This document shows, one piece after another, positions 21,220 through 43,210 of a stretch of DNA of 64,000 nt (its first letter is position 1; every line of letters begins with the position of its first letter). The translations under genes were made by a program, and so were the position numbers. The notes below the pieces were generated by a model. It saw nothing but the letters and a program-made list of their open reading frames with translations, ran no database searches and was not told the DNA's origin. The DNA lies in assembly GCA_963792585.1 (NCBI GenBank), contig CAWBWI010000003.1, positions 800,001 through 864,000 of the forward strand, read 5' to 3'. The stretch is from Candidatus Eiseniibacteriota bacterium (GTDB lineage Bacteria > Eisenbacteria > RBG-16-71-46 > CAIMUX01 > VGJL01).

Positions 21220-22071
21220 ATGAGATGGCCGCTGGTTTCCACAGTTCTCCTGCTCGTCGCCGTGTCGATCCTCTCGGTCCCCGTTGAATCGCGGGCGACC
21301 CAATGTTTCTACGGCGACTTCGACACCGACGATGATCCGTGGACGATTCGCACTTCATGCGCGGACGCTTTATGCGACCTCGACTTCATCGTCGAGGCGG
21401 GAGAGATCTCTCCCGCGGGCGAGAACTTCACGATCATTGTGACCGAGGGATGCTGCGACTACCTCTACGAAGGTGATTACGGCACCCTGGTCGAGATGAA
21501 CATGAATTCCGCCTACATCGACTCCTGGAGTGTCAGTTACACGACCTGCACATGTTGTTCGAGCTGGTACATCGACGGGCACTTCCGTTCCGACGCCGTC
21601 TTCGATCCCGGTCAACGCTACGTGATCGGGAGCGGGACCGCGCAACCGCTATGCAACGACACCCATTGGGATTGCATTCCTTCCCATACCTTCCACGCGG
21701 AATTCTGGGTCGAACACATGGGATACTGCGATGGAAATTCGATTGCCATGGAGCTCCAATGCCCAACCTCCGATGCGCCGGATGCCGTCATGGCGGCGGC
21801 CCGTCTGGGCATGCCGTCGCCCAACCCGGTGACGGACGCTCTTCGCTTCACCGTGAATCTGCCCGAGGCGGGCCCGGCGCGCGTGCGCGTCTACGACGCG
21901 AGCGGCGCGATCGTGGCGACACTCGTCGATGAGGAGTTCGCTGCGGGCACCCATCCACAGGCCTGGCGACCGGTGGACGCGCGCGGGTCGCGCCTGGCGA
22001 GCGGGATCTACTTCCTGCGCCTGGATGCGAGCGGCGTGCGCGCCTCGCGTCCGTTCGTGGTCGCTCGTTGA
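21220..22071 (+). CDS. Secreted Cys-rich protein with C-terminal FlgD-Ig domain
   Basis: GGAGG RBS; signal peptide; about 12 Cys in the N-terminal domain; tail PSPNP...VYDASG...ASGIYFLRL. Confidence 0.8.
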   Translation: MRWPLVSTVLLLVAVSILSVPVESRATQCFYGDFDTDDDPWTIRTSCADALCDLDFIVEAGEISPAGENFTIIVTEGCCDYLYEGDYGTLVEMNMNSAYIDSWSVSYTTCTCCSSWYIDGHFRSDAVFDPGQRYVIGSGTAQPLCNDTHWDCIPSHTFHAEFWVEHMGYCDGNSIAMELQCPTSDAPDAVMAAARLGMPSPNPVTDALRFTVNLPEAGPARVRVYDASGAIVATLVDEEFAAGTHPQAWRPVDARGSRLASGIYFLRLDASGVRASRPFVVAR

Positions 22072-22144
22072 TATGGAACGACCCTGAGTCAAGGCACTGA
22101 TTCAGTGGGGCGATCTTCTCTCTGCCGTGGGAGAAGGTCGCCCC
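22072..22144 (+). repeat. Stop-codon-anchored element, copy 1 (motif plus 38-nt hairpin at 22107-22144)
   Basis: TGA-N6-ACGACCCTGAGTCAAG; hairpin GGGGCGATCTTCTCTC-TGCCGT-GGGAGAAGGTCGCCCC starts 35 nt after the stop. Confidence 0.75.
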
Positions 22145-22663
22145 TCTGCTTCCTACCGGGCGTCATGATCGTGGTCCGACGGAGTCGGCGTCGGGGTGCG
22201 AGACGCCGGAGCCGGAGAACCCTTCGTAAGCCGCCCGCTCCGGATAGCCAGCTGTCGATCCACGGATTCGCGAGCTGAGCGCGCCATGGCGGGAGTGGCC
22301 ATGATCGGAAGTCTTTCACTCTGACGTGCTAGTCTGCGAGCCTGTGCCCCTGCAATCGTCGACCGGGACAGCTGATCTCTGATTCGACCTTCTTGGTCCG
22401 CGTCAGCGAAGGGACCGAGCTTCCTCCAATACACCTGCTCCTTACGTTCCTTGCGGGAGTATACTCATCCCGCCTTCAACTACGCGGAGCCGACCGGAAG
22501 GGCACTTACCGTGAGAGCCGCGCGCTTGATCCCATTGATTTCCGATGAGTACGAGCAGTGGAGTGGGTAACCGTCCGTTGACCCGAGATCACCAATCCGC
22601 TTGAACGCTTGGCGTCATGCTGCTGCTCGGAGCCGATTGGGACAAAGGGAAAGGGGCCGCCAG
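22106..22663 (+). repeat. ~560-bp non-coding direct repeat, copy 1, upstream of propeller gene A
   Basis: Colinear and highly similar to 28591-29147. Confidence 0.9.
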
Positions 22664-25600
22664 ATGAAGAACCAAGGGTCGTTGCGGACCGGATGCCTCT
22701 GTTTGGGTCTCTGTTTGATCTTCGTGATGCTCTGTCCGGCGGTTGGAATTGCTGGCTTGCCGACGCTTGGGACCACTCATCGCGGAAGCGGCCCCCCGGC
22801 GGTGCTGCTCGGGGACAGGGACGGATGGTGGGACGAGCCACCGGATTTCAACGGAGAGGTACTAGATTCAGAGATCATTGGTGTCTTTGGGCTCGAAACC
22901 GAGGTCGCAAACGACTTCTACTCCACGTCGCCGACGACCATCTTTGAAGCCGTGTGGTGGGGAGAGTACTACAACAACGATGGAACCGGGCCAAACGTCT
23001 CTGCATTCAACTTGCGATTCTACGATGACGCGGGTGGCGTTCCGAGCTCCATCGTGGCTGAGTATCTCGAGTCTGTCCCGATGGACACGTTCACCGTGGG
23101 TCAGGGCACCGAGGGACCCGTCTACGAGTACCATGCTGCCGTGTCGGCCAATATCGGAGCGGGAACATACTGGTTCTCGGTTCAAGCATGCGACCACGTG
23201 TTCCCGCCGCAATGGGGTCGCGTAGCAGCGGGGCAGGTAACCGGCCATCAAGCTACGTTTCGTTCCGAGTACTTCTCGTTCCCGGACTGGACTCGTAGTG
23301 TGGAAGTTTTTGGCGTCGCTCTGGATGCAAGTCAGCGATTCTATGCAGCCCCTCCCATTCCCGGAGCGTGCTGCTTCATAGATCTGCGTTGCGAGTCCCT
23401 CATGCCAGTGGACTGTCGCCGGCTCGGGGGGGCATACCAGGGGCCCGAAAGCTCCTGTGACCCGAATCCGTGCCCGTCGAGTCCGATGGCCTGCTGTTTT
23501 CCCGATGGGCACTGCGAGAGAAATGTCTCAGACTGCGTGCGCGGAAGGAGGGGGATCATCCGGCATCGACTTGAGCTGCGATCCCAATCCCTGTTCGCAG
23601 CCCTCGATGGCCTGCTGCTTCGCGGACTTGCACTGCGAGTTCGTCACGGAGAGCATTTGCTTCTCCGAAGGTGGACGTCCACAAGGCTACCCAAGCAACT
23701 GCGACGAGGCATCCTGTCCGCGGCTCGGCGCCTGCTGCAATCCAGCAACGGGAAGCTGTCTGCTCGTGGGTGAGGACCAGTGCATGGCCCCCAGCGTCTG
23801 GATGGGCGATGGAACGGTCTGCCTTCCGAATCCATGCCCTCTGCCGCCCGGCGGCGCGATCGTGGCGTGGGGGAAGAACTGGTCCGGCCAGTGCGAGGTC
23901 CCCGCGCCGAACGCCGACTTCGTGGCGATTGCGGGAGGCAGCGAACACAGCCTGGGTCTCAAGTCCGATAGCTCCATCGTGACCTGGGGGATCGGGCCGG
24001 GTGATCCGCCCGCGCCAAACACGGGTTTCGTGGCGATTGCTGCGGGCAGTCAGCACAGCCTGGGCCTGAAGTCCGACGGCTCCGTCGTGGCATGGGGGAA
24101 CGGCGCCAACGGCCAGTGCAACGTGCCTTTGCCGAACACAGGCTTCGTCGCTATCGCGGCAGGCGAAGCCCACAGCCTGGGCCTGAAGTCCGACGGCTCC
24201 GTCGTGGTATGGGGGTATGACCTGGGCAACGTCCCCGCGCCGAACAGCGGCTTCGTGGCGGTTGCGGCGGGGACTTACCACAGCCTGGGTCTCAAGGCCG
24301 ATGGGGCGATCGTGGCATGGGGGTGGAACTACGGCGGCGAGTGCGACGTCCCCGCACCGAACGCCGACTTCGTGGCGGTTGCGGGGGGCTCGAACCATAG
24401 TATGGGCGTGAAGTCCGACGGTAGGATCGTTGCCTGGGGGCCGAACAACGAGGGTCAGTGCAACGTCCCCTCGCCAAACAATGGCTTCGTGGCGGTTGCG
24501 GCAGGCGACAGGTTTAGTCTGGGTTTGAAGGCCGACGGGACGATCGTGGCCTGGGGGCGCAACAGTTTTGGCCAGTGCGATATCCCCACCCCGAACGCCG
24601 GTTTCGTTGCGGTCGCGGCGGGCTACCAACACAGTCTGGGGTTGGGCCCGCAGGCGCCGGTCGGAGCCTGCTGCAATCCGTCCACGGGCGACTGCACGGT
24701 GACGATCCAGGGGAACTGCAGCTACGACTGGCACGGCGAGTGGACGACCTGCGAGCCGAATCCATGTCCACAGCCTCAAGGCGCGTGCTGTGATCCCGCG
24801 ACCGGAGCCTGCACAGTCACTGCACCACTAGAGTGTGCCGCTCCAAACGTCTGGCACGGGGAGTGGACGACCTGCGCCCCGAATCCCTGTCCGCTGCTGG
24901 GCGCCTGCTGCATTCCAACGACGGGAAGCTGCCAGCAGGTGACCGAGGACCAATGCACCTCCCCCCGTACATGGTTGGGCCCGGGAACGGACTGTTTTCC
25001 GAATCCGTGCCCTCAGCCACCCAGCGGTTCGATCGTGGCCTGGGGATACAACGGCGACGGTCTGTCCAACGTGCCCGCACCCAACATCGACTTCGTGGCG
25101 GTTGCGGCGGGCGTGGTGCACAGCATGGGCCTGAAGACCGACGGGACGATCGCGGCCTGGGGGCAAAACGACAATGGCCAGTGCAACATCCCCGCGCCGA
25201 ACACCGGTTTCGTGGCGATATCAGCGGGTGGAGCTCACAGCTTGGGACTCAAGACGGATGGATCCATCGTCGCATGGGGGTCCAACTGGACAGGCCAGTG
25301 CAACGTCCCCGCACCAAACACAGGTTTCATTGCCATCGGAGGTGGAGGGGGACACAGCCTGGGTCTCAAGGCCGATGGGACGATCGTGGCCTGGGGGCAG
25401 AACGACTACGGCCAGTGCAACGTCCCCACCCCGAACGTCGGTTTCGTGGCGGTCGCGGCGCGGGACTTTCACAGCCTGGGCCAGAAATCCGACGGCACGA
25501 TCGTGGCCTGGGGGAGGAACGACTACGGTCAGTGCGATGTGCCCGCGCCGAACACCGGATTCGTGGGGCTCGGAGTGGGGTCCTACTTCAGCCTGGGCGT

Positions 25601-28556
25601 GAAGGCCGATGGGACGATCGTAGGCTGGGGCAGCAACTATGAGGGCCAGCTCGATGTGCCGGTGCCGAACACCGATTTCGTGGCGGTCGCGGCGGGCGGG
25701 ATGCACAGCATGGGCTTGAAGGCCGACGGGACGATCTTGGCCTGGGGGGGCAACGACTTTGGCCAATGCAACGTCCCCACGCAGAACGCAGGCTTCGCGG
25801 CGATTGCGGCGGGCTCGGCCCACAGCCTGAGTTTGGGCCCGGAGGTTGGCGCGTGCTGCCAATCGGATGGAACCTGCACGCTGACGACTGAAGCCAACTG
25901 CCTGCCCCCAGGGGGATGGCAGGGTGTTGGTTCCGTTTGCGTTCCCAATCCATGCTTCCAGCCGCCCGGCGCGTGCTGTAACCCGACGAACGGAGCCTGC
26001 ACAATCACAACGCCACCTGAGTGTGTCGCTCCCAACGTCTGGCACGGGGAGTGGACAACCTGTGCGCCGAATCCGTGTCCGCAGCCTGAAGCCTGTTGCT
26101 TTGCGGACGGGCACTGCACAATGGTTCTCCCATTGGACTGTCAGCAGTCGAGCGGCGAGCCGCAAGGGGCTGGAACAGACTGCGACCCGAACCCCTGTCC
26201 GCAACCTTCGATGGCTTGTTGTTTCCCGGATGGGAATTGTGAGTTCACCACGGAAAGCGTTTGCCGTTCCGAGGGCGGGAACCCGCAAGGGTACCCAAGC
26301 ACTTGCGACGAAGTGTCCTGTCTACTGCTGGGCGCATGCTGCAATCCGGCAACAGGAAACTGCCTGCTGGTGACCGAGGACCTGTGTACGTCCCCCAGAG
26401 TCTGGATGGGTGTGGGAACGGACTGCCTTCCGAATCCATGCCCTCAGCCGCCCGGTGGCTCGATCTTGGTATGGGGGGATTGCAGCAGTCACCGGTGCGA
26501 GGTCCCTGCACCCAACGGCGACTTTGTGGCGGTTGCCGGGGGTGAACTTCACAACCTGGGCCTGAAATCCGACGGGACGATCGTAGCCTGGGGGTCCAAT
26601 GGAGCCGGCCAGTGCAATGTTCCGGCGCCCAACGCCGACTTCGTTGCTGTCGCCGCAGGGTCCGCGTCCCGCTACAGCCTGGGCCTGAAGTCCGACGGCA
26701 GAATCGTGGCATGGGGGAGCAACAACTACGGCCAGTGCAACGTCCCAGCGTCGAACGCGGATTTCGTGGCGGTTGCGGCGGGTACCTATCACGCCCTGGG
26801 CCTGAAGTCCGGCGGGACAATCGTGGCTTGGGGGTGGAATGAGTACGGTCAGTGCGACGTCCCCACACCCAACGCAAACTTCGTAGCGGTCGCGGCGGGC
26901 GGGGGTCACAGCCTGGGCCTCAAGTCCAATGGGACGATCGTGGCGTGGGGAGCCAACTTCCACGGCCAGTGTAGTGTCCCCGCGCCGAATGCCGACTTCA
27001 TTGCGATCGCGGCGGGGGGCTACGACCACAGCCTGGGTCTGAAGTCCGGCGGCAGAATCGTGGTATGGGGGTGGAACGAGGTCGGTGAGTGCGACGTTCC
27101 CGCGCCAAACTCTGACTTCGTGATGGCAGCGGGGGGCGCACGACATTCCCTGGGCCTCAAATCCGATGGCTCCATCGTGGCCTGGGGGTATAACGGCCAG
27201 GGCCAGTGCAACATCCCTGCCCCGAACACCGGCTTCGTGGCGGTCGCGGGAGGCGGCCATCACAGCCTGGGTTTGGGACCGCAGGTCGGTGCCTGCTGCC
27301 AGTCGAATGGAACCTGCACGTTGACGACGGAAGCCGACTGCCTGCCTCCAGCGCAGTGGCAGGGCGCTGGTTCCGTCTGCGTTCCCAATCCCTGCCCGCT
27401 GCCCATCGGCGCCTGCTGCAATCCGACCACAGGGGGCTGTTCGGTGACGCAGCAGGCGAACTGCAGCTACAACTGGCACGGGGAGTGGACGACGTGTACA
27501 CCGAATCCGTGTCCGCAGCCTCAAGGCGCGTGCTGCAACCTCACGACTGGAGCCTGCACAATCACAACGCCACCGGAGTGTGTCGCTCCAAACGTCTGGC
27601 ACGGGGAGTGGACGACGTGTGAGCCGAACCCGTGTCCGCAGCCTATCGGCGCGTGCTGCAACCCGACGACCGGAGCGTGCAGCGTCACAACGCCACCCGA
27701 GTGTGTCGCTCCGAACGTCTGGCACGGGGAGTGGACGACCTGTACGCCGAATCCGTGCCCGCAGCCTCAGGGCGCATGCTGTAGCCCCGCGACCGGAGCC
27801 TGCACCGTCACAACTCCACCTGAGTGTGTCGCTCCCAATGTCTGGCACGGGGAGTGGACGACGTGCGAGCCGAATCCGTGCCCTCAGCCTCAAGGCGCGT
27901 GCTGTAACCCCACGACCGGAGCGTGCACCGTCACAACGCCACCTGAGTGTGTCGCTCCCAACGTCTGGCACGGCGAGTGGACGAGCTGCGAACCGAATCC
28001 TTGTCCACAACCTCAAGGCGCGTGCTGCAACCCGACAACCGGGGCCTGCGCAATCACGACGTCCCTTGAGTGCATCGCTCCAAACGTCTGGCACGGGGAG
28101 TGGACGACCTGTGAGCCGAACCCGTGCCCCCGTCCGGGAGCTTGCTGCCACGCCGACGGCACATGCACGCTCACATTCCAGGAAGACTGCCAGCCTCCGG
28201 ACAACTATCAAGGAGAAGGAACGCTCTGCCTGGGCAATCAGTGTCCGCCTTCCGCTATCGAGGGGACATCCCAGATTGCGGAGTCGCTGGTTCTCACTCT
28301 GGCCCCTAACCCAAGCTCCCGAGACGTCTCGATCCTGTTCGGCTTGCCCGCGGCAACGGCGATCAGCTTGGAGATCTTCAACGCGGCTGGAGCACTCGTG
28401 CGGCAGCTCGTGGAGGGCCAACTGCCGGCCGGTTCCTTCTCGACGCAATGGGACGGAAAGGATGACAACGGCCGGGAGGTGCCGACAGGGATCTATTTCG
28501 CCCGGATTGTGACGGCACACGGAACCAGGACGGGACGGGTGATTCTGGCCAGATGA
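22664..28556 (+). CDS. Giant secreted protein A: N-terminal domain, Cys-rich GACC repeats, three 7-bladed RCC1/BLIP-II-like propellers, FlgD-Ig tail; frameshift ~23521
   Basis: ORFs 22601-23773 and 23457-28556 join at HCE/MSQTAC, matching paralog B; 21 repeats of IVAWGxNxxGQCxVPxPNxxFVAVAAGxxHSLGLK; tail APNPS...WDGKDDNG...GIYFAR. Confidence 0.85.
27525..28139 (+). repeat. Five 123-bp tandem repeats encoding GACCNPTTGAC...WHGEWTTCEPNPC
   Basis: Units start at 27525, 27648, 27771, 27894 and 28017; an equivalent array lies at 33733-34347. Confidence 0.88.
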
Positions 28557-28629
28557 AATGAGGTAATCCTGGGCCAAGCTTCCGAGTCGCTGGGGCGATC
28601 CTCTCTCTGACATGGGAGAGGGTCGCCCC
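28557..28629 (+). repeat. Stop-codon-anchored element, copy 2 (hairpin 28592-28629)
   Basis: TGA-N6-GTAATCCTGGGCCAAG; hairpin GGGGCGATCCTCTCTC-TGACAT-GGGAGAGGGTCGCCCC starts 35 nt after the stop. Confidence 0.75.
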
Positions 28630-29147
28630 CCTGCTTCGTACCGGGCCTCATGATCATCTTCCGACGGAGTCTGCGTCGGGGTGCGAGATGCTGGAGCCGG
28701 AGAACCCTTCGTAAGCCGCCCGCTCCGGATAGCCAGCGATCGATCCACGGATTCGCGAGCTGAGCGCGCCTTGGCGGGAGTGGCCACGATCGGAAGTCCT
28801 TCACTCTGACGTACTAGTCCGCGAGGCTGTGCCCCTGCAATCGTCGACCGGGACGGCAGATCCTTGATTCGACCTTCTTGGTCGGCCTCTGCGAATAGAC
28901 CGAGCTTCCTCCAATAGACCTGCTCCTTACGTTCCTTGCGGGAGTATACTCATTCCGCCTTCAATTACGCGGAGCCGACCGGACAGGCACTGACCGTGAG
29001 AGCCGCGAACTTGATCCCATTGATTTCCGATGAGTACGAGCAGTGGAGCGGGTGACTGTCCGTTCGCCCGAGATCACCAATCCACTTGAACGCGTGGCGT
29101 CATGCTGCTGCTCGGAGCCGACTGGGACAAAGGGAAGGGGCCGCCAG
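28591..29147 (+). repeat. ~560-bp non-coding direct repeat, copy 2, upstream of propeller gene B
   Basis: Colinear with 22106-22663; offset about 6485 bp. Confidence 0.9.
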
Positions 29148-32100
29148 ATGAAAGACCATGGGTCGTTGCGGACCGGATGCCTCTGTTTGGGTCTCTGTTT
29201 GATCTTCGTGGTGCTCTGTCCGGCAGTTGGAATTGCCGGCTCGCCGACGCTTCGGCTCGCGCACCGCGCAAGCGGGCCGCCGGCGGTGCTGCTCGGGGAT
29301 AGGGACGGATGGTGGGACAAGCCCCCGGATCTCAACGGAGAGCCAATGAGTTCAGAAATCATTTCCGCCTTTGGGCTCGAGACCGAAATCGCAAACGACT
29401 TCTACTCTTCGGCGCCGACGACTATCTACGAAGTCGTGTGGTGGGGCGAGTACGTTCAAGAAGAAGGCGAACCAAACGTCTCTGCGTTCAACTTGCGGTT
29501 CTACGATGACGCTGGTGGCGTACCGGGTTCCCTCATGACGGAGTATCTCGAATCCACCCCGGCTGAGACGATCCCGCTGGGTCAAACCCTGTACGGACCG
29601 ATCTACGAGTACCACGGATATGTATCGGTCGATGTCGGAGTCGGGTCATACTGGTTCTCTGTCCAGGCGAGCGACCATGTGTACCCGCCGCAATGGGGTC
29701 GCCTCGCAGCGGGGCAGGTAACCGGCTATCAATCTACGTTTCGTTCCGATTACTTCGGGTTCCCGGACTGGACTCGTAGTGGGGAGATCTTTGGAATCCC
29801 CCTAGATGCGAGTCAGCGGTTCATCACAACTCCACCTGCCCCCGGAGCGTGCTGCTTCGCAGATCTGCATTGCGAGACCCTCATGCCGGGGGATTGCCGT
29901 CGACTTGGGGGGTTATACCAGGGACCCGGGAGCACCTGTGAGCCGAATCCTTGCCCGTCCATTCCGATGGCATGCTGCTTCCCTGATGGGCACTGCGAGC
30001 AGGTGCCCCAGGCTGCTTGTGAGGAAGGAGGGGGATCATCGGGCATCGGCGCGAGCTGTGACCCAAACCCCTGTTCGCAGCCCTCGATGGCGTGCTGCTT
30101 CCCGGACGGGCACTGTGAGTTCGTCACGGAGTACGTTTGCCTCTCTGAAGGTGGAACTCCACTCGGGTACCCGAACACTTGCGACGAAGTATCCTGCATG
30201 CAGCAAGGCGCGTGCTGCAGCATGGGGAATTGCGTGGTGGTGGCCGAGGACCAGTGCGTCTCGCCAGGCGTCTGGCTGGGCGTAGGAACGAACTGCCTTC
30301 CGAGTCCATGCTCTCGAACACCCAGCCCGATCGTCGCATGGGGAAGCAACATCCACGGTGAGTGTAACGTGCCCGCGCCAAACGAGAACTTCGTGGCGAT
30401 CGCTGGGGCGGGAAGCAACAGCCTGGGCCTCAAGGCCGATGGCTCCATCGTTGCCTGGGGGCGCAACGACTACGGCCAGTGCGACGTCCCCGAGCCGAAT
30501 GCCGACTTCGTAGCGATCGCTGGCCTCAGCACTGGCCTGAAGTCCGACGGGACAATCGTGGTGTGGGCGGGCGACTGGGATGTGCCTTTGCCAAACGCCG
30601 ACTTCGTGGCGATCGCGGCGGGTGGCGTGCACCGCTTGGGCCTCAAGACCGGCGGGTCCATCGTGGCATGGGGGCAGAACGACTTCGGCGTGCTCAACGT
30701 CCCCACTCCTAACGCCGGCTTCGTGGCGATCGCGGCGGGGCTTATTCACTGTCTGGGCCTGAGGGCCAACGGGACGATCGTGGCATGGGGATACAACGGC
30801 TATGGCCAGTGTGACGTCCCGGCACCGAATGCCGGTTTCGTGGCGATCGCGGCAGGTTGGTATCACAACCTCGGTCTGAAGGCTGATGGATCCGTTGTGG
30901 CATGGGGAAACAACGACGAGGGCGAGTGCAATGTCCCTGAGCCCAACAGCGGTTTTGTCGCGGTCGCTGCGGGCATCTTCCACAGCATGGGCCTCAAGAC
31001 CGACGGCTCCATCGTGGCCTGGGGGGCCAACGACCAAGGTCAATGCGACATCCCCGCGCCGAATGCCGGCTTCGTGGCGGTCGCGGGGTGCGACTCTCAC
31101 AGTCTGGGATTGGGCCCGCAGGTCGGTGCCTGCTGTCAGTCGGATGGAACCTGCACGGTGACGACGGAAGCGAACTGCCTGCCCCCAGGGGGATGGCAGG
31201 GTGTTGGTTCCGTTTGCGTTCCCAATCCATGCTTCCAGCCGCCCGGCGCGTGCTGTAACCCCACGAGCGGAGCCTGCACAGTCACAACGCAACCTGAGTG
31301 TGTCGCTCCCAACGTCTGGCACGGGGAGTGGACGACCTGTGCGCCGAATCCGTGTCCACAGCCTGGCGCCTGCTGCAATCCAGCAACGGGAAACTGCATG
31401 CTGGTCACCGAGGACCTGTGCACGTCCCCCAGAGTCTGGATGGGTGTGGGAACGGTGTGCCTTCCGAATCCATGTCCCCAGCCACCCGGCGGCGCGATCG
31501 TGGCATGGGGGAAGAACTGGTCTGGCCAGTGCAACGTCCCCGCGCCGGACGCCGACTTCGTGGCGGTTGCGGGGGGCGGCGAGCACAGTCTGGGTCTGAA
31601 GTCCGATGGGTCCATCGTGGCCTGGGGATCCAATGGAGCCGGCCAGTGCAACGTCCCCGCGCCGAACGCCGGTTTCGTGGCGGTTGCGGCAGGCAGTCAG
31701 CACAGCCTGGGCCTGAAAGCCAACGGTTCCATCGTGGCATGGGGGAATCACGCCAACGGCCAGTGCAACGTCCCCGCGCCAAACGCAGACTTCGTCGCAG
31801 TCGCGGCACGAGAAGCCCACAGCTTGGGCCTGAAGTCCGACGGCTCCGATCGTGGCCTGGGGGTATGACCAGGGCAACGTCCCCGCGCCGAACACCGGCT
31901 TCGTGGCGGTTGCGGCGGGGACTCACCACAGCCTGGGTCTCAAGGCCGATGGGGTGATCGTGGCATGGGGGTGGAACTACAGCGGCGAGTGCAACGTCCC
32001 CGCGCCGAACGCCGACTTCGTGGCGGTTGCGGGGGGCTCGAGCCACAGCTTGGGCGTGAAGGCCGACGGGACGATCGTTGCCTGGGGGCGGAACAACGAG

Positions 32101-34764
32101 GGTCAGTGCAACGTCCCCGCGCCGAACACCGGCTTCGTGGCGGTTGCGGCAGGCGAGATGTACAGCCTGGGCTTGAAGGCCGACGGGACGATCGTGGCCT
32201 GGGGGCTCAACGACTTCGGCCAGTGCAACATCCCCACCCCGAACGCCGGTTTCATTGCGATCGCGGCGGGCTACGATCACGGTCTGGGGTTGGGCCCGCA
32301 GGCGCCAGTCGGAGCCTGCTGCAATCCGTTCACGGGCGACTGCACGGTGACGATCGAGGGCAACTGCAGCTACGATTGGCACGGGGAGTCGACGACTTGT
32401 GCACCGAATCCGTGTCCACAGCCGCAAGGCGCGTGCTGTGATCCCGCGACCGGAGCGTGCGCAGTCACAACGCCACTCGAGTGTGTCGCTCCGAACGTCT
32501 GGCACGGAGAGTGGACGACCTGCACTCCCAATCCCTGTCCGCTGCTAGGCGCCTGCTGCATTTCAGAAACGGGGAACTGCCTGCAAGTGACCGAGGAGCA
32601 GTGCACGTCCCCCCGTGTCTGGTTGGGCCCGGGAACGGACTGCTTTCCGAATCCATGCACTCAGCCACCCAGCGGCTCGATCGTGGGGTGGGGACACAAC
32701 AACAGCGGCCAGTGCAACGTGCCCGCCCCCAATGCCGACTTCGTGGCGATCTCAGGTGGTGGCGGCCACAGCTTGGGTCTCAAATCCAACGGATCCATCG
32801 TGGCCTGGGGGCTCAACGACTTCGGCCAGTGCAACGTTCCGGCGCCAAATACTGGCTTCGTGGCGATATCAACGGGTGTATCTCACAGCCTGGGTCTCAA
32901 GACGGATGGGGCCATCGTCGCATGGGGGGCCAACTACTCTGATCAGTGCAGCGTTCCCGCACCGAACGCCGACTTCGTGGCGGTTGCAGGGGGGAATGGT
33001 CACAGTCTCGGCCTGAAGGCCAACGGTTCCGTTGTGGCCTGGGGGCAGAACAACTACGGCCAGTGCAACGTCCCCACGCCGAACGTCAGCTTCGTGGCGA
33101 TTGCGGGAGGACTCTTTCACAGCCTGGGCCTGAGGTCCGACGGAACGATAGTGGGCTGGGGCGAATGCAATGTGCCCGCGCCGAACACCGACTTCGTGGC
33201 GATCGCGGCAGGGAATTACTACAGCCTGGGTCTGAAGTCCAATGGGACAATCGTGGCTTGGGGGAGCAACACCGAAGGCCAGTGCAACGTCCCTGCACCC
33301 AATACCGACTTCGTGGCCATTGCGGCAGGCGGGTTCCACGGTCTGGGGATGAAGTCCGACAGGACGATTGCGGCGTGGGGGGCGAACCACGGTGGCGACA
33401 ATGGCCATGGGCAATGTGATGTCCCCGCGCCGAACGCCGGCTTTGTGGCGATCGCGGCGGGGTGGTGGTACAGCCTGGGTCTCGGCCCGCAGCTTGGTGC
33501 CTGCTGTCTATCGGATGGAACCTGCACGGTGACGACGGAAGCCAACTGCCAGCCTCCAGCGCAATGGCAGGGTGGTGGTTCCGTTTGCGTTCCCAATCCC
33601 TGCCCGCTGCCCATCGGCGCCTGCTGCAATCCGACCACAGGGGGCTGTTCGGTGACGCAGCAGGCGAACTGCAGCTACAACTGGCACGGGGAGTGGACGA
33701 CTTGCGAGCCGAATCCGTGTCCTCAGCCTCAGGGCGCATGCTGTAGCCCCGCGACCGGAACCTGCACAATCACAACGCCGCCGGAGTGCGTCGCTCCAAA
33801 CGTCTGGCATGGAGAGTGGACGACGTGTGAGCCGAACCCGTGTCCGCAGCCTATCGGCGCGTGCTGTAACCCGACAACCGGAGCCTGCGCAATCACGACG
33901 TCCCTTGAGTGTGTCGCTCCGAACGTCTGGCACGGGGAGTGGACGACCTGTACGCCGAATCCGTGCCCGCAGCCTCAAGGCGCATGCTGTAACCCCGCGA
34001 CCGGAGCGTGCACAGTTAGGACGCCACCTGAGTGTGTCGCTCCAAACGTTTGGCACGGGGAGTGGACGACGTGCGAGCCGAATCCGTGCCCTCAGCCTCA
34101 AGGCGCGTGCTGTAACCCCACGACCGGAGCGTGCACCGTCACAACGCCACCTGAGTGTGTCGCTCCCAACGTCTGGCACGGCGAGTGGACGAGCTGCGAA
34201 CCGAATCCTTGTCCACAACCTCAAGGCGCGTGCTGCAACCCGACAACCGGGGCCTGCGCAATCACGACGTCCCTTGAGTGCATCGCTCCAAACGTCTGGC
34301 ATGGGGAGTGGACGACCTGTGAGCCGAACCCGTGCCCCCGTCCGGGAGCTTGCTGCCACGCCGACGGCACATGCACGCTCACATTCCAGGAAGACTGCCA
34401 GCCTCCGGACAACTATCAAGGAGAAGGAACGCTCTGCCTGGGCAATCAGTGTCCGCCTTCCGCTATCGAGGGGACATCCCAGATTGCGGAGTCGCTGGTT
34501 CTCACTCTGGCCCCTAACCCAAGCTCCCGAGACGTCTCGATCCTGTTCGGCTTGCCTGCGGCAACGGCGATCACCCTGGAGGTCTTCAACGCGGCCGGAG
34601 CACTCGTGCGGCAGCTCGTGGAGGGCCAGCTGCCGGCCGGTTCCTTCTCGACCCAATGGGACGGACGGGATGACAGCGGCCGGGGGGTGCCGACAGGGAT
34701 CTATTTCGCCCGGATTGTGACGGCACACGGAACCAGGACGGGACGGGTGATTCTGGCAAGATAA
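29148..34764 (+). CDS. Giant secreted protein B, paralog of A: three 7-bladed RCC1/BLIP-II-like propellers, GACC repeats, FlgD-Ig tail; frameshift ~31848
   Basis: ORFs 29043-31868 and 31852-34764 join at DGS/IVAWG (one extra base); same signal peptide and N-domain as A; 3' ~1.2 kb nearly identical to A. Confidence 0.85.
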
Positions 34765-34809
34765 GGCCATTTGTCCTCCCACCCTGAATCGAGCCTCTGT
34801 CTGATCGGT

Positions 34810-34835
34810 CCCAGCGCCCCGATTGGGGCGCTGGG
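34810..34835 (+). terminator. GC-rich hairpin downstream of gene B
   Basis: CCCAGCGCCCC-GATT-GGGGCGCTGGG, perfect 11-bp stem; no U-tract. Confidence 0.4.
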
Positions 34836-35062
34836 CGCCGGGTGCACGGAGGCGCCGGCGCGGAGATCCACGTGGGGCCGCATCCGATTCGGCTTTCGAT
34901 GATCGGGGGGGGAGGCGCAACGATGGTGTGGACCGGTTGGATTAACAGAAGGCGGGGTTCGCGGAACCCCAACCACCTGTAGGGGTTCTCTGCAGCCACA
35001 GGAGACGCGATTGCCTGTGTCTTCCAGTCGAATTGAAATTCCCACGTCCACGGAGGTATTCG

Positions 35063-35362
35063 ATGCGCATGATGATGAAAGTCTCGATCCCTGTCGAGGC
35101 AGGCAATAAGGGGGTCAAGGAAGGCCTTCTTCCCAAGACCGTCATGGGATTCGTGGAACGGATGAAGCCGGAAGCTTGCTACTTTGGTCCCGAGGACGGC
35201 AGGCGAACGGCACGCTTCTACTTCGATCTCCAGGATCCGACATTGATTCCGTCAATTGCGGAATCGTTCTTCATGAACCTCAACGCGTCCATCGAGATGT
35301 CCCCCGTGATGAACCTCGACGAGATGAAGGCGGGGGTCGAAAAGGCGATGAAGCTCGCCTGA
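35063..35362 (+). CDS. Small conserved hypothetical protein (DUF3303/GYD-like)
   Basis: GGAGG RBS; MRMMMKVSIPVEAGN...KPEACYF...GRRT...PVMNLDE resembles a widespread ~100-aa family. Confidence 0.7.
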   Translation: MRMMMKVSIPVEAGNKGVKEGLLPKTVMGFVERMKPEACYFGPEDGRRTARFYFDLQDPTLIPSIAESFFMNLNASIEMSPVMNLDEMKAGVEKAMKLA

Positions 35363-35373
35363 GGGGTAGACTC

Positions 35374-35625
35374 TCAGCACCCGACGGATTGTCGTGATGG
35401 GAACTCCGCTGTGAGATAGCCGAGGTCCTTCGTCCACCTGAGAACCTCTTCTGTCTCGCTCAGGCGGATCTTCTTGTGGATGTACTCATCGAGGACGCGC
35501 TGTGATCCCGCCTCGATCCCCAGGTCGATGGAGTAGCACCCCGCGCGGCGCATCGTCTCGAGTGGCGGTGGATCGACCGTCCCCACGCAGATCTCGCACT
35601 CCCAAGAGGGTTGGATCCCGCTCAT
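35374..35625 (-). pseudogene. Fragment of a radical SAM protein
   Basis: LETMRRAGCYSIDLGIEAGSQRVLD..HKKI matches the GxESG core of B12-binding radical SAM enzymes; no CxxxCxxC motif and no N- or C-terminal domains. Confidence 0.62.
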
Positions 35626-35808
35626 TCGAGGGATCCGCGCAAAGGCTCCTACCTATACCCCTACTGTGACAGGAGGTGTATCATTGCAGGCGACGCAAAC
35701 CCTACGCCCCCGGGTTGCCGCTGCGCCCGCCAGGGAGTCGGTTGGCGTCAACCGAGGTACGGGCCCGTACCCATGCGGCGAACGCGCTGAATTCGAAAGG
35801 GGGTCGAC

Positions 35809-38217
35809 ATGAAATCGATGCGACGGTTCGCGGTCGTTCTCACCCTGCTCGCGGCCACCCAGTTCCTGCATTCCAGTTCCTCACAGGCGACTTCCCTGAA
35901 CGGACAGTGGATGGACGGGTTCGGATATCCGATACCCGGACTCAATGGATACGGTCGCTGCGCGATCGAATACGACGGCGCGTTGATCTGCGCGGGTCAC
36001 TTCGACCTCGCAGGAGACACGGTGGCCCAGCAGGTCGCTGCGTGGGACGGCGCGCAGTGGCATTCCATGAATGCAGGCACCATCTGGTGCTCGGTGACCG
36101 CATTCGCGATCTACCGGGGCGAACTGGTCGCCGCGGGGGAGTTCGGGTTCATCGAAGGAGGGCCGACGGCCGGGCTGGCGCGCTGGGATGGGGTCCGGTG
36201 GCAGCCGTTCAGCTCCTCTCCCACCCACGGCGCGAGCACCCTCTGCGCGTCCAGGGACTCCCTGGTCGTCGGAGGCCGCTTCGCCTCGATGGGAGGTGTC
36301 TCCGCTCTCAACGTCGCTCTGTGGGACGGTTCTTCCTGGAGTTCGCTGGGGGGTGGCCTGGACCCGTATCCCAATACGCTGGCGGTGTACAACGGCGCCA
36401 TCGTCGCCGGAGGCTGGTTCTCTGTGCGGCGCTGGAACGGCTCGGCCTGGACGGATGTCGCGCCCGGTATCAGCGGCGATGTCTGGTTCCTCGGCGTCCA
36501 TGGGGGTCGGCTCATCGCAGGGGGAAGCTTCTGGCGGGTCGGGATCCTCATCACGAACGGCATCGCAGCGTGGGACGGGACGGTATGGAGCTCGCTGGGG
36601 TCGGGATTCAATGGCTCTACGAGCGGCATGGTGACGCACGGGAGTGACCTCATCGTCGCGGGGATCTACGAGACCGCCGGAGGCGTGCCGGCAATGAACA
36701 TCGCACGTTGGGACGGCGCCCACTGGTACGCGTTGGGAGACGGATGCGACGGCGGGCTGAACGGCGTGGCGACGTTCAATGGCGACATCTTTGCCGTCGG
36801 AGATATCCAGTCGGCCGGCGGCACGCCCGTGGGTGGCATCGCCCGGTGGGATGGAGTCGAGTGGTCCGGCGTCGGCGTCGGTGGGAAGGGGATGGACCTC
36901 GACGTCAGGGCCCTTGCCGCCTACAACGGTGCGCTCATTGCCGGTGGGTCGTTCTCGAACGCGGGGGGGATGAGCCCGGCAAACCGGATCGCGCGCTGGG
37001 ACGGAACCGAATGGCGATCCCTGGGTGGCGGCATCCAGGGCAGTATGGGAGTCGTCCTCGGCATGACCGTCTTCGATGGACTCCTGTACGTGGTAGGACA
37101 CTTCGGTCAGGTGGGAAACGTGGCCGCCTCGAACATCGCCGCCTGGAACGGATCGGAGTGGTTCCCCGTTGCCGGCGGCACGGACGGAGCGATCTCTGCG
37201 ATTGCGGTCTACAACGCGCATCTCGTCATCGGCGGGTCCTTCGAGCACGCGGGCGGGAGCGCCGCCCGCTGCATCGCGATTCTGAACCCGGGTGGTTGGA
37301 GCCCGATGGGTGCGGGTATGTACGAGGGCGGCTATGAGGGGAACAACATCGCGTCCGTGGCGGCGCTCACCGTGCACGGCGGCGACCTGGTGGCCGGAGG
37401 GACCTTCGAGCAGGCCGGCGACGTGGACGCGATGAACATCGCGCGATGGAACGGAAACGCGTGGAGCGCGATCGGCCAGGGAATCGGCCAGTCGGATCCT
37501 TACGAGGGAGGCGAGGTATCCGCTCTGGCGTCCACCGGCGGGATCCTCTATGCGGGCGGGACGTTCACGAGCGCCGGGGGTGGCGCCGCAGCGAACTTCG
37601 CCTCCTGGGACGGCGCCGCGTGGAGCGAAGTCGGTGGCGGCATCGATGGCTACCTGCGCTGCCTTCTCCCGATGGACGGTGGAATCGTCGTCGGCGGGCG
37701 ATTCGATACCGCCGGGGAGACCCCCACACGCGACATCGCGTTCTGGGACGGACACGCATGGAGCACCTTCGCGTCCGGGCTCACGAGCCTCGCCCCGGGG
37801 CGATTCCATGCGACCTATGCATTGACTCAAGTCGGCGGCGACCTGTTTGCCGGCGGTCTGTTCACCTGCGCGGATCCGACCGCCTCGAGCAACATCGCTT
37901 CATGGCGGAGCATTCCCTCCGACGCCGGAGAAGACGTTTCCGGGGTCGCATCGCGCATCGGCCTTCCAAACCCCTACCGACCCGGCGCCTCGATCCGCCT
38001 GATGCCGCGTGGCGTCTGGAGCGTCGACGAGCTCCAGCTGGAGATCCTCGACGTGCAGGGACGGCGCGTGCGCGACCTCACGGTGGACGGCGCGAGCGGA
38101 ACGACCCGCTGGGATGGCCGGGCGGAGAACGGGCGGGACGTCCCGGAGGGGACGTACTTCGTCCGCGTGCGGCAGGGGCGCTCGTGGAGTGTGAGGAAGA
38201 TCATCCTGGATCGGTGA
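35809..38217 (+). CDS. Secreted beta-propeller repeat protein (IARWDGxxW repeats) with FlgD-Ig tail
   Basis: Signal peptide; about 13 repeats of LxxGGxF..AG....NIAxWDG..W..LGxG; tail PNP...LDVQGRRVR...WDGRAENG...GTYFVR. Confidence 0.83.
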   Translation: MKSMRRFAVVLTLLAATQFLHSSSSQATSLNGQWMDGFGYPIPGLNGYGRCAIEYDGALICAGHFDLAGDTVAQQVAAWDGAQWHSMNAGTIWCSVTAFAIYRGELVAAGEFGFIEGGPTAGLARWDGVRWQPFSSSPTHGASTLCASRDSLVVGGRFASMGGVSALNVALWDGSSWSSLGGGLDPYPNTLAVYNGAIVAGGWFSVRRWNGSAWTDVAPGISGDVWFLGVHGGRLIAGGSFWRVGILITNGIAAWDGTVWSSLGSGFNGSTSGMVTHGSDLIVAGIYETAGGVPAMNIARWDGAHWYALGDGCDGGLNGVATFNGDIFAVGDIQSAGGTPVGGIARWDGVEWSGVGVGGKGMDLDVRALAAYNGALIAGGSFSNAGGMSPANRIARWDGTEWRSLGGGIQGSMGVVLGMTVFDGLLYVVGHFGQVGNVAASNIAAWNGSEWFPVAGGTDGAISAIAVYNAHLVIGGSFEHAGGSAARCIAILNPGGWSPMGAGMYEGGYEGNNIASVAALTVHGGDLVAGGTFEQAGDVDAMNIARWNGNAWSAIGQGIGQSDPYEGGEVSALASTGGILYAGGTFTSAGGGAAANFASWDGAAWSEVGGGIDGYLRCLLPMDGGIVVGGRFDTAGETPTRDIAFWDGHAWSTFASGLTSLAPGRFHATYALTQVGGDLFAGGLFTCADPTASSNIASWRSIPSDAGEDVSGVASRIGLPNPYRPGASIRLMPRGVWSVDELQLEILDVQGRRVRDLTVDGASGTTRWDGRAENGRDVPEGTYFVRVRQGRSWSVRKIILDR

Positions 38218-38290
38218 CATAGAACGACCCGGGACCAAGCCGTGCGGTTCGTGGGGCAATCTTCTCTCTGCGATGAGAGAGGATCGCCCC
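38218..38290 (+). repeat. Stop-codon-anchored element, copy 3 (hairpin 38253-38290)
   Basis: TGA-N6-ACGACCCGGGACCAAG; hairpin GGGGCAATCTTCTCTC-TGCGAT-GAGAGAGGATCGCCCC starts 35 nt after the stop. Confidence 0.72.
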
Positions 38291-38420
38291 GTCTGCGTTG
38301 CCTGATTCGCAGCCGCCGCGAACTCCTGCGCCGCTTGCACCCCGCTTCCTCGCGGACAGAGGTATGCCCATCGAGTTGGGAAGCCTATGATGAGTGCGCC
38401 ACGGATCTCGGAGGATCGCG

Positions 38421-39980
38421 ATGAACTCGTTGCGCATCGTCGTCAAGGCTCTCATGACCATCGGCATGGCCGCGTGCGCCGTGGCGGTCGTAGCCGCCCC
38501 GGCGACAGCCGACTACACCACCCCCGGAACCGGAGTCGACTGGACGATGGACGACCTGGTGGTCAACTCCGGCGGGGCGGTCACCGGAGGTGACGGCGCG
38601 TACGGGGTGCACCAGACCGTGATCATCGCGGCGAACGATCGGCTGACGATCGCAGCCGGGGCGCACCTCACCTTCCTCGATACCGCCGGGACGATGGGAT
38701 TGACGGTCCGCGGCGCGCTCTCGGCGATCGGCACCGAGCAGGAGTCGATCGTGTTCGACTCTGCGATCGCCACCCCGGGCGCGTGGCGCGGTCTCCTCTA
38801 TAGCGACACGCAGGCCGGATCCGAGTTCCACCTGGCTGGGTGTGAGATCGCGCACGCGAACACGGCAATCGACATCGTTGGCGCTGACGTGTTGGTGGAG
38901 CGCTGTGATCTCCACGATACACTCGACAAGGTCGTCGACTTCTCGGCCGCGAGCGGCGTGGTGCGCGACTGCCGGATTCACGACAACCGCCGTCGCACGA
39001 TCGTCATGACGCTTTCCTCCTCGCCGCTGATCGAGAACTGCTGGATCGAGAACAACAACATCGACAACACTTCGCCGTACCCCTACATCAACATCGGGCT
39101 GCAGGGGGTGAACTCCCCGACGATCCGCGGCTGCACGATTCTCGGGAGCGGCCACCAGATGAGCGGCGGGATCGCGATCTGGAACGCCGGAAACGGCCTG
39201 ATCGAGGGGAATCGCATCGAGGGGTGTGGCTACGGGATCCTCTGCTACCAGACGGCGGCGAACCCCATGATCCGCAACAACACGCTCCTGGCGAACAACA
39301 TCCACCCCGACACGGTGAACTGGGGGTTCGGCATCGCCTGCAATGGGAACAACGCGCCGGTCGTGGTGGGAAACACGATTCGCGGGCACTGGTACGGAGT
39401 TGCAGCGATCAACGGAGGACGGCCGAATCTCGGCAACCTCGGCAACGCCTCGCCGGATGACGACGGTGGAAACCACATCACCGGGAACGGCCTGAACGGT
39501 CAGATCTACGGCCTCTACAACAACACGACGTTTTCGCAGTCGGCGCAGGGCAACTGGTGGGGCGGAGCCGCGGCCCAGGAGGTGGAGGACGCGATCTGGC
39601 ACCAGGTTGACGATCCCGCGCTCGGTCTCGTGGATTATTCGCAGTGGTTGATGGTCGATGCCGTTGACGAGTGGCGGGACGAGACGCCTGCCGGCGGTCG
39701 CCGCGTCCTCTCGTCGATCCGCGTGCATCCGAACCCCACAAGCGCGCGGAGCACGATCGCGTTCCGACTCCTACGGACGAGCACGGTGCGGGGGATCGTG
39801 ATGGATTTGACCGGGCGCGTCGTGCGCGAGATCCCTCTCGGCGCGCGATCCGTCGGGGCGCACCTGCTGGAGTGGGATGGCGTCGACGGAGCGGGGCGGG
39901 CGCTGCCGAGCGGAGTGTACTTCTGCCGGATCACGGCGGGGGAGGAGTCGATCACGGCGAGGTTCGTGTTGCTGCGCTGA
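38421..39980 (+). CDS. Secreted right-handed parallel beta-helix protein with FlgD-Ig tail
   Basis: GGAGG RBS; signal peptide; Asn/Ile-rich PbH1-type repeats (IEGNRIEG, IRNNTLLAN); AQGNWWG; tail HPNP...WDGVDGAG...SGVYFCR. Confidence 0.83.
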   Translation: MNSLRIVVKALMTIGMAACAVAVVAAPATADYTTPGTGVDWTMDDLVVNSGGAVTGGDGAYGVHQTVIIAANDRLTIAAGAHLTFLDTAGTMGLTVRGALSAIGTEQESIVFDSAIATPGAWRGLLYSDTQAGSEFHLAGCEIAHANTAIDIVGADVLVERCDLHDTLDKVVDFSAASGVVRDCRIHDNRRRTIVMTLSSSPLIENCWIENNNIDNTSPYPYINIGLQGVNSPTIRGCTILGSGHQMSGGIAIWNAGNGLIEGNRIEGCGYGILCYQTAANPMIRNNTLLANNIHPDTVNWGFGIACNGNNAPVVVGNTIRGHWYGVAAINGGRPNLGNLGNASPDDDGGNHITGNGLNGQIYGLYNNTTFSQSAQGNWWGGAAAQEVEDAIWHQVDDPALGLVDYSQWLMVDAVDEWRDETPAGGRRVLSSIRVHPNPTSARSTIAFRLLRTSTVRGIVMDLTGRVVREIPLGARSVGAHLLEWDGVDGAGRALPSGVYFCRITAGEESITARFVLLR

Positions 39981-43169: not shown

Positions 43170-43210
43170 GTTGCGACGAGCCTGAGCCAACTCCATGACG
43201 CACCGATGCG

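Follow-up and report, generated by a model that had tools for sequence, protein, structure and literature searches.

Why should genes that encode otherwise unrelated proteins end in the same non-coding sequence? We asked this of a 64,000-nt stretch of the genome assembly GCA_963792585.1 of Candidatus Eiseniibacteriota bacterium (contig CAWBWI010000003.1, positions 800,001 to 864,000). We refer to the whole stretch as the window (G000:C3:800001-864000) and to the source genome, whose assembly is 84% complete, as G000. A sequence-only reading had described a hairpin at a fixed distance behind the stop codons of three FlgD-tailed genes in the window, and had proposed a cassette-boundary recombination site, an element resembling a repetitive extragenic palindromic (REP) sequence or the end of an insertion sequence (IS), or a 3' mRNA signal. 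The IS-end proposal is the one our analysis bears out. Judged by homology, the three motifs are right ends of an IS1111-type element. Very probably they are relics of an IS whose intact relatives lie antisense in the stop codons of FlgD-tail genes; a DEDD recombinase likely inserts them at these stops, steered by a predicted bridge or seek RNA whose target guide corresponds to the last two codons and the stop. The features of the three copies are as follows.

21220..22071, + strand: target gene 1, encoding 283 amino acids (aa) with a C-terminal FlgD-Ig/T9SS-like tail; the stop is rebuilt from the T of the host and the GA of the element.
22070..22083, - strand: right end of copy 1, with the 3-nt extension GAT (22070-22072) and the 11-bp subterminal inverted repeat (22073-22083).
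22087..22092, - strand: TTGAC-type -35-like box of copy 1, facing the element end; putative part of a circle-junction promoter.
22107..22144, + strand: hairpin of copy 1, 16 bp with a 6-nt loop.
28554..28629, + strand: copy 2, with the stop codon, a decayed inverted repeat and -35 region, and the hairpin (28592-28629).
35809..38217, + strand: target gene 3, encoding an 802-aa beta-propeller protein with an FlgD tail.
38215..38290, + strand: copy 3, an independent relic with the stop codon, an inverted repeat with one change (38219-38229), and the hairpin (38253-38290).

Within the window, the earlier description was accurate. The three TGA stops end at 22071, 28556, and 38217, and each is followed by a 35-nt spacer and a 38-nt hairpin whose stem position 10 is T-A, C-G, and T-G in copies 1 to 3, respectively. 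The 6-nt loop is variable, and the motif reported 7 nt behind the stop is present in all three copies. The upstream genes all carry an FlgD_ig domain scoring over the Pfam cut-off; the tail presumably serves in secretion, given its Pfam and NCBIfam similarity to a type IX secretion system (T9SS) sorting domain. Copies 1 and 2 lie within one duplication, whereas copy 3 has only approximately 80 nt in common with them, and the reported lack of a U-tract agrees with a terminator scan of 21900-22700, which detected no U-tract terminator. Of 200 shuffles, almost none folded as well as the hairpin in question (z scores of -3.5, -3.3, and -2.8 for copies 1 to 3), so that chance does not account for the hairpins. 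Across 13 copies in G000, 92.8% of the aligned cells are paired, with changes on both sides in 4 of the 16 pairs, compared to at most 64% paired cells in a control with slid pairing; the relatedness of these sequences inflates the covariation figures. Rfam gave no match at E<=1 in window positions 21500-39000, and one irrelevant match (E 3.7) for six loci with the full RNA.

The start of the element needed revision: it lies at the stop codon itself rather than 35 nt downstream. Reading from the stop, a 3-nt end comes first, then an 11-bp inverted repeat, and after it a -35-like box and the hairpin. What had been called a second motif combines the inner part of the inverted repeat with the minus-strand TTGAC box. 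The inverted repeat of copy 1 is identical to that of intact elements, and those of copies 2 and 3 are decayed. In total, the window copies retain approximately 75 nt of the element.

The intact form is found in relatives. The motif matched 21 of 61 genomes, and a 24-nt right-end pattern had matches in 39 of 206 genomes from the phylum, many of them facing the edge of a contig. Longer copies run on into a conserved domain of approximately 205 nt, for which the public records are mostly from Ca. Eisenbacteria; behind this domain, on the opposite strand, lies a gene for a 372-aa IS110 recombinase. Intact elements are approximately 1.56 to 1.60 kb long. Their 11-bp repeat is set back from the termini by 7 nt on the left and 3 nt on the right, in agreement with the 7/3 rule for IS1111 elements (PMC11187229). 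The recombinase domains score above their cut-offs (PF01548 at 55.9 bits, PF02371 at 85 bits, and NF033542 at 238.5 against a cut-off of 140; measured at L065, where L-numbers denote individual loci and G-numbers other than G000 denote genomes of relatives). The protein has the DEDD/RuvC and Transposase_20 architecture, its acidic and SG motifs could be located, and the best of its PLSDB matches do not reach 50% identity. Downstream of the recombinase gene, most intact elements have a structured, covarying non-coding region of approximately 300 to 340 nt. The end and hairpin of the window type are continuous with the full RNA domain at L017/L259; continuity including the recombinase is seen in a complete element at L097, which has a related hairpin form, and in a partial one at L288. 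In other intact elements, this place is taken by different terminator-like hairpins, and a U-rich tail often follows in the direction of the host gene. No match to the element was found in viral contigs. We dropped an identity with IS91/ISCR, as well as motif resemblances to group II introns and retrons, once the IS110 open reading frame (ORF) appeared; a PF04986 search for the IS91/ISCR case gave no match, but neither did any of its controls, so it carries no weight.

Where the element lands is highly regular. Outside G000, 80 of the 86 unique right ends are in frame at FlgD-tail stops; the search pattern imposes a stop triplet, but neither a reading frame nor a gene family. Among the remaining six, two have too little flank, two have a GCT end and no stop, one is a probable frameshift, and one is a short ORF. 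In a set of 20 loci from relatives, the offset from the FlgD stop was 0 in 18, 3 nt in one, and 40 nt in one; 21 of 23 further matches, partly overlapping the earlier sets, were at FlgD stops, and searches led by the recombinase gave the same picture. When the element is removed and the flanks are rejoined, a stop codon results in 27 of the 27 FlgD insertions with both flanks. Insertion occurs after the T of TGA, TAG, or TAA, without target duplication and always antisense to the host gene. The right end, GAT or AGT, supplies the missing letters of TGA or TAG, so that the host protein keeps its sequence. Both ends recur across the FlgD clade in a FastTree phylogeny. Given that GAT also ends distant relatives (38 to 51% identity), mostly away from gene ends, stop rebuilding looks like a pre-adaptation.

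A sister clade (55 to 59% identity) is directed at another tail: its 23 right-end pattern sites comprise 17 at S/T-W-G-x-x-K-x-x-Y/F-R tails, two at FlgD tails, and four elsewhere. This SWG tail, S/T-W-G-x-[LVI]-K-x-x-[YF]-R-stop, ends 73 genes in G000, and its occupied loci are L178, L180-L182, and L306-L325; a role in secretion is our guess. A third, distant group (L190, L193) lies by eye at FlgD-like ends, to which the tail profile gave no score. As a separate observation, a distant IS clade of approximately 50% identity (L117, L120, L123, L126) is inserted between repeated ACAACC motifs, possibly another repeat target.

We analyzed the non-coding region as a candidate guide RNA. An alignment of 34 regions folds better on the recombinase strand (-61.2 versus -49.5), with 138 G-U cells versus 34 A-C cells; double changes occur in 22 of its 51 pairs, and it contains a target loop like that of IS621. 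Guides were compared with targets in 47 elements at >=54% identity, of which 42 had a usable guide and flank and five were left out. Of 7 positions, the left guide agrees with the element's own target at 4.76, compared to 3.06 +/- 0.16 after shuffling (maximum 3.6 in 5,000 shuffles; n=42), and the FlgD elements by themselves give 4.58 versus 3.35 (n=31). The right guide matches at position +1 in 34 of 35 elements (16.0 expected) and at +2 in 31 of 35 (15.7 expected), with little or no signal at +3 to +5. In 45 of 46 cases, the donor loop spells a T followed by the right end of the same element. The guide stretches match both target strands, with the complement of the top strand first, as in the IS1111 order, and insertion is site- and orientation-specific. 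The target guide is predicted to spell the last two codons and stop of the host gene: the 31 guides of the FlgD clade translate as LR (15), VR (8), or others (8; LH, FR, IR, LK, LD, PQ), each followed by a stop, and no FlgD ends are commoner in G000 than LR and VR. Guides of the sister clade read YR- or FR-stop.

G000 itself holds relics of this element. Using an iterated tail profile, we collected 289 ORFs in G000 that end in an FlgD-type tail, and the motif starts at the stop codon of 15 of them. Two more copies do not directly adjoin such a stop (C1 near 129290 and C1 near 1907765), giving approximately 17 copies, nearly all fixed to stops. The copies thus do not stand at random positions, and few of the FlgD-tail genes carry one. 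The 35-nt spacing and TGA stop described for the window do not hold throughout G000: the spacer is 28 to 36 nt among other G000 copies, and the stops may be TGA, TAG, or TAA. On a tail tree of weak resolution (182 of 284 branches open), the carriers are dispersed among sister tails that have no motif, a pattern that speaks against its simple descent along a single lineage of tails. Co-inheritance of the tail and the 3' untranslated region was rejected on the same pattern, a weak test whose shuffle ignored unlabelled rows. Left-end relics stand behind FlgD stops at C1 ~1907690-1907922 (-) and C6 ~929277-929350 (-), the former adjoining the second right end near 1907765 in a head-to-tail arrangement like a circle junction. 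Selective retention of right ends, suggested by 15 right ends versus one or two left ends in G000, was not established, since phylum-wide patterns match approximately 98 left versus 74 right ends. Several relics cluster in islands dense in FlgD- and SWG-tail genes (C1 195-230 kb, C1 1875-1945 kb, and C4 240-305 kb), which also hold remnants that we take to be rve-type, IS256-like, and IS1380-like. Possible decayed heads without a hairpin occur behind FlgD stops at window 43167-43195 and C4:270451, with scores of 1 to 3 bits only.

These relics suggest how the window copies may have arisen. The element would move as a circle, closure of which would bring the -35-like box together with a -10; the TTGAC box lies approximately 17 nt before the junction in 5 of 5 junctions examined, with a weak -10, and the available part of PMC11187229 describes junction promoters in IS1111 circles. 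The hairpin would stop read-through from the host gene into the RNA region. In G000, the recombinase and most of the RNA would have been lost, leaving the end and hairpin. Of 58 right ends with enough flank, 24 consist of the end and hairpin only, six include part of the RNA, four extend into the recombinase, and 24 are full, full elements being over-sampled by our searches; the end plus hairpin is thus the commonest decayed state (24 of 34 non-full heads). Such relics may have been kept after full insertion and deletion, with the hairpin retained as a terminator of the host gene, or they may be reintegrated right-end-only partial products. Partial circles of this kind that reintegrate are reported for other IS110 elements in the accessible text of 10.64898/2026.08.14.744561, and right-end-only partial products also in that of 10.1101/2025.10.25.684509. 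Among relatives, we observed a mini-element of approximately 50 nt behind an FlgD stop, in which a right-end head is fused straight to a left end (L042, G047:C58:23610-23659), and two right ends facing each other approximately 4 kb apart (L018, G004:C4:92969 and 96990).

Several results weigh against this interpretation. The window copies are identified by homology over approximately 75 nt only and are not full IS1111 elements: the sequence past their hairpins resembles the RNA core no more, or hardly more, than shuffled sequence does, and a few other G000 copies show a faint similarity to the core past the hairpin. No IS110 recombinase was found in the 84%-complete G000 assembly by family or protein search, and a full-element hidden Markov model recovers only four right ends and one left end there (E<0.01). 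Folding z scores of single sequences are alike on both strands (-2.36 versus -2.39), and the left donor guide did not resolve in the guide analysis. Over the six codon bases, guides match their targets loosely, with no mismatch in 6 of 31, one in 9, two in 11, and three to four in 5. In addition, related elements are non-independent samples. The specificity of the guide belongs with these points. With G000 as the stand-in genome for counting, FlgD stops make up 4.4% of exact guide-matching sites, 1.6% of those with one mismatch, and 0.8% of those with two; outside coding sequences the shares are 17%, 7%, and 3%, and among stops 20 to 49%. Most real targets have one or two mismatches to the guide. 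No second guide emerged, as k-mer sharing between elements and their own flanks was at shuffle level, with the exception of an excess of approximately 2 standard deviations between left-end and upstream 6-mers. A stem-loop at the target was also rejected: a raw difference in folding energy (p=0.003) was confounded by GC content and was gone against codon shuffles (p 0.29 to 0.79).

The 9-nt guide alone thus predicts 1 to 4% landing at FlgD stops, compared to approximately 93% observed, so a further specificity layer or strong selection beyond the guide is needed. A profile of 15 to 21 nt places 69 to 95% of weighted sites at FlgD stops; having been trained on FlgD ends, it is circular and speaks to sufficiency only. 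Our best guess is that a longer DNA readout, to about -15 to -21, together with purging of other insertions explains the gap. Purging by itself, with landing that follows the short guide everywhere, seems somewhat unlikely to us. It agrees with the finding that a same-strand gene lies within 60 nt behind 13% of FlgD genes versus 35% of other genes, which would lower the polarity cost at FlgD genes, and with the four of 23 sister-clade matches at neither tail, two of which are guide-like. However, intergenic sites and other stops outnumber FlgD stops approximately 5 to 1 among exact guide matches and should often be neutral, genomes with multiple copies that have near-identical ends have them at FlgD stops only, and at L083 a short-tailed FlgD gene is occupied at its stop despite three mismatches.

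Could the motif instead belong to the host, as a terminator or 3' mRNA signal of FlgD-tail genes that an IS later captured? Its fixed position, compensatory stem changes, and pyrimidine-rich tails would fit such a signal, as would the predominance of the end-plus-hairpin state among decayed heads. Yet only 15 of the 289 FlgD genes carry it, scattered over the tail tree among sister tails that lack it; moreover, its conservation peaks in the inverted repeat, a copy of which stands at the left end too, and intact elements readily exchange one hairpin sequence for another. We regard the host-signal origin as largely refuted and very improbable, although the hairpin may have a secondary role as a terminator. 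To the remaining identities, namely a REP repeat mobilized by a REP-associated tyrosine transposase (RAYT), an integron attC site, a homing hairpin of a diversity-generating retroelement, or a stop-codon recoding element, we give almost no credence. A hairpin near gene ends, a tandem arrangement, and three TGA stops in the window recall one or another of them, and G000 has ten tyrosine-recombinase matches and one reverse-transcriptase match. The same genome gave six serine-recombinase matches. The Y1/RAYT family (PF01797) has no match in the 84%-complete assembly, however, and the copies are nearly all stop-fixed, which led us to reject the REP proposal. The sole reverse-transcriptase match (C6:91765) is far from all copies, the tails have no common variable repeat, and the gene ends are not homologous to each other, so we also rejected a diversity-generating retroelement. 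Integron attC sites carry GTTRRRY/RYYYAAC cores, and none were seen by eye in alignment A2. Against recoding, the motif also follows TAG and TAA stops, and the copy 2 hairpin contains an in-frame TGA. The enzyme linked to the motif in relatives is a DEDD recombinase of the IS110 family rather than the tyrosine recombinase or HUH/RAYT enzyme that had been suggested, and it was not found in the 84%-complete G000 assembly. Direct continuity into IS110 elements accounts for every part of the motif, for which there is no Rfam match.

Beyond the right ends themselves, the window contains the following features around the copies.

22069..28556, + strand: duplication unit with the right-end relic, a leader, and a split RCC1-repeat gene with an FlgD tail (ORFs 22601-23773 and 23457-28556).
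29043..34764, + strand: second RCC1-repeat FlgD-tail gene, behind copy 2, split into 29043-31868 and 31852-34764.
34762..34782, + strand: family B, a second, different stop-anchored motif that is found behind FlgD-like stops elsewhere.

The RCC1-repeat genes (22601-28556 and 29043-34764) contain arrays of 117-nt and 123-nt repeats and are split by apparent frameshifts, apparently as pseudogenes or as assembly errors within repeats. Elsewhere in the window, three 252-nt tandem repeats (5090-5845) encode IPT/TIG domains in ORF 4973-6406.

The duplication unit bears on whether the ends also act as recombination sites, at which a recombinase supplied in trans would join a right end to a downstream FlgD stop, moving or copying genes as cassettes and building tandem arrays. 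Within G000, the right end, leader, and RCC1 gene occur again as a unit, whose homology with C1:219569 begins exactly at the stop codon, and related leaders follow other FlgD stops. Public sequencing runs, which contain small shares of the window as contigs, join window sequence at 22069 to other FlgD-like ends, one piece continuing into the RCC1 leader (two contigs); one public contig has the same gene end with TAG in place of TGA. At L283 (G004:C4:138734-145713), in the stop of another FlgD gene, both IS ends and an intact RNA domain enclose a gene for a 2,024-aa beta-helix/fn3 FlgD-tail protein, with no recombinase. The reintegrating partial circles described in the accessible text of 10.64898/2026.08.14.744561 would also fit. 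On the other hand, L283 is a single cargo example with no second copy, its cargo is oriented opposite to the RCC1 genes of the window, a boundary of this kind could also come from ordinary tandem duplication or from a deletion that stopped at a retained terminator, and no recombinase was found in G000. We therefore think cassette movement unlikely as an account of the window, and the boundary proposed in the sequence-only reading survives as a possible side role of relics of the IS1111-type element.

Family B has approximately 18 conserved bases, usually TTGA, and then a hairpin, directly behind FlgD-like stops in 11 of 11 loci inspected by eye. Its loci are window 34762-34782, G000:C3:488463, G000:C1:1748702-1748722, L195-L198, L200, L201, L204, L212, and L086; two copies in G002 run off contig ends, and in L086 it follows an IS1111 left end. 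Its parent transposase was not found in the searches made. At our most speculative, we can imagine an RNA-guided recombinase lineage that reads the ends of secreted-protein genes as a class via a determinant beyond the 9-nt guide, either long DNA readout or coupling to translation termination. Leftover right ends would then make FlgD stops attachment (att) sites for integron-like duplication and shuffling, and at least three lineages (the FlgD clade, the SWG clade, and family B) would have converged on tail stops; we doubt that this holds.

Although the window copies themselves would be dead remnants of a known IS family, the target rule of that family in these bacteria is of wider interest. 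A guide aimed at the codons of a protein motif common to hundreds of genes, with the stop cut and rebuilt, amounts to a natural safe-harbour strategy, in which a large gene family likely offers the element harmless landing sites. The switch from LR/VR-stop to YR/FR-stop is a natural reprogramming of the guide that tracks a protein family, and it points to SWGxxKxxYR as another C-terminal tag that is abundant among the proteins of these uncultured bacteria. The gap between the 1 to 4% predicted and approximately 93% observed specificity bears on off-target control of bridge recombinases. As for the relics, the host may have retained an IS end as a terminator, or such an end may serve in the movement of genes for secreted proteins.

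The IS family itself is known; its target rule is unusual and apparently unpublished. In a literature search that left ISfinder, subscription papers, and supplementary tables outside its scope, we found no account of an IS1111 target that regenerates a stop codon, of Eisenbacteria FlgD, or of an Eisenbacteria insertion sequence. The comparisons that follow extend to the parts of each paper available to us. ISEc11, ISKpn4, ISPst6, and ISPa11, the IS1111 elements with seekRNAs (PMC11187229), have in common with the present element a DEDD recombinase and 11-bp repeats at 7 and 3 nt, as well as a non-coding region downstream, two short guide stretches in the IS1111 order, one orientation, and no target duplication; natural re-direction of the guide is described for them as well (PMC11187229). 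Their targets include a short linear site, attC sites, and REP sequences (PMC11187229), whereas the guide here is predicted to encode the last codons and stop of a protein family, the stop is split and rebuilt, and in a sister clade the aim has shifted to a second tail family. The recombinase is also longer, at 372 aa versus the 330 to 350 stated for IS1111 (PMC11187229).

The bridge RNA elements IS621 and ISCro4 (PMC11208160; PDB 8wt6, 9t56) likewise have an internal target loop, in which an apical hairpin is flanked by a left and a right guide, and a donor loop that covaries with the donor end (PMC11208160). They differ from the present element in that its RNA lies downstream of the recombinase gene, only the T is invariant at its target, with no full CT core, its left donor guide did not resolve, and its recombinase is weakly similar to theirs (E ~1e-9). 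Closest in their derivatives are ISPpu9/MITEPpu9 (PMC12288879), ISPpu10 (10.64898/2026.03.19.712850), and the expanded cargo IS110 elements (10.64898/2026.08.14.744561), which together likewise show non-autonomous derivatives, cargo between the ends, and single-end partial products. The dual-match targeting of ISPpu10 involves a stem-loop at the target (10.64898/2026.03.19.712850), of which we found none for the element here, yet a layer of specificity beyond base pairing is a feature of that group too. Its members target REPs or intergenic sites. The cargo in the present case is a secreted FlgD-tail gene.

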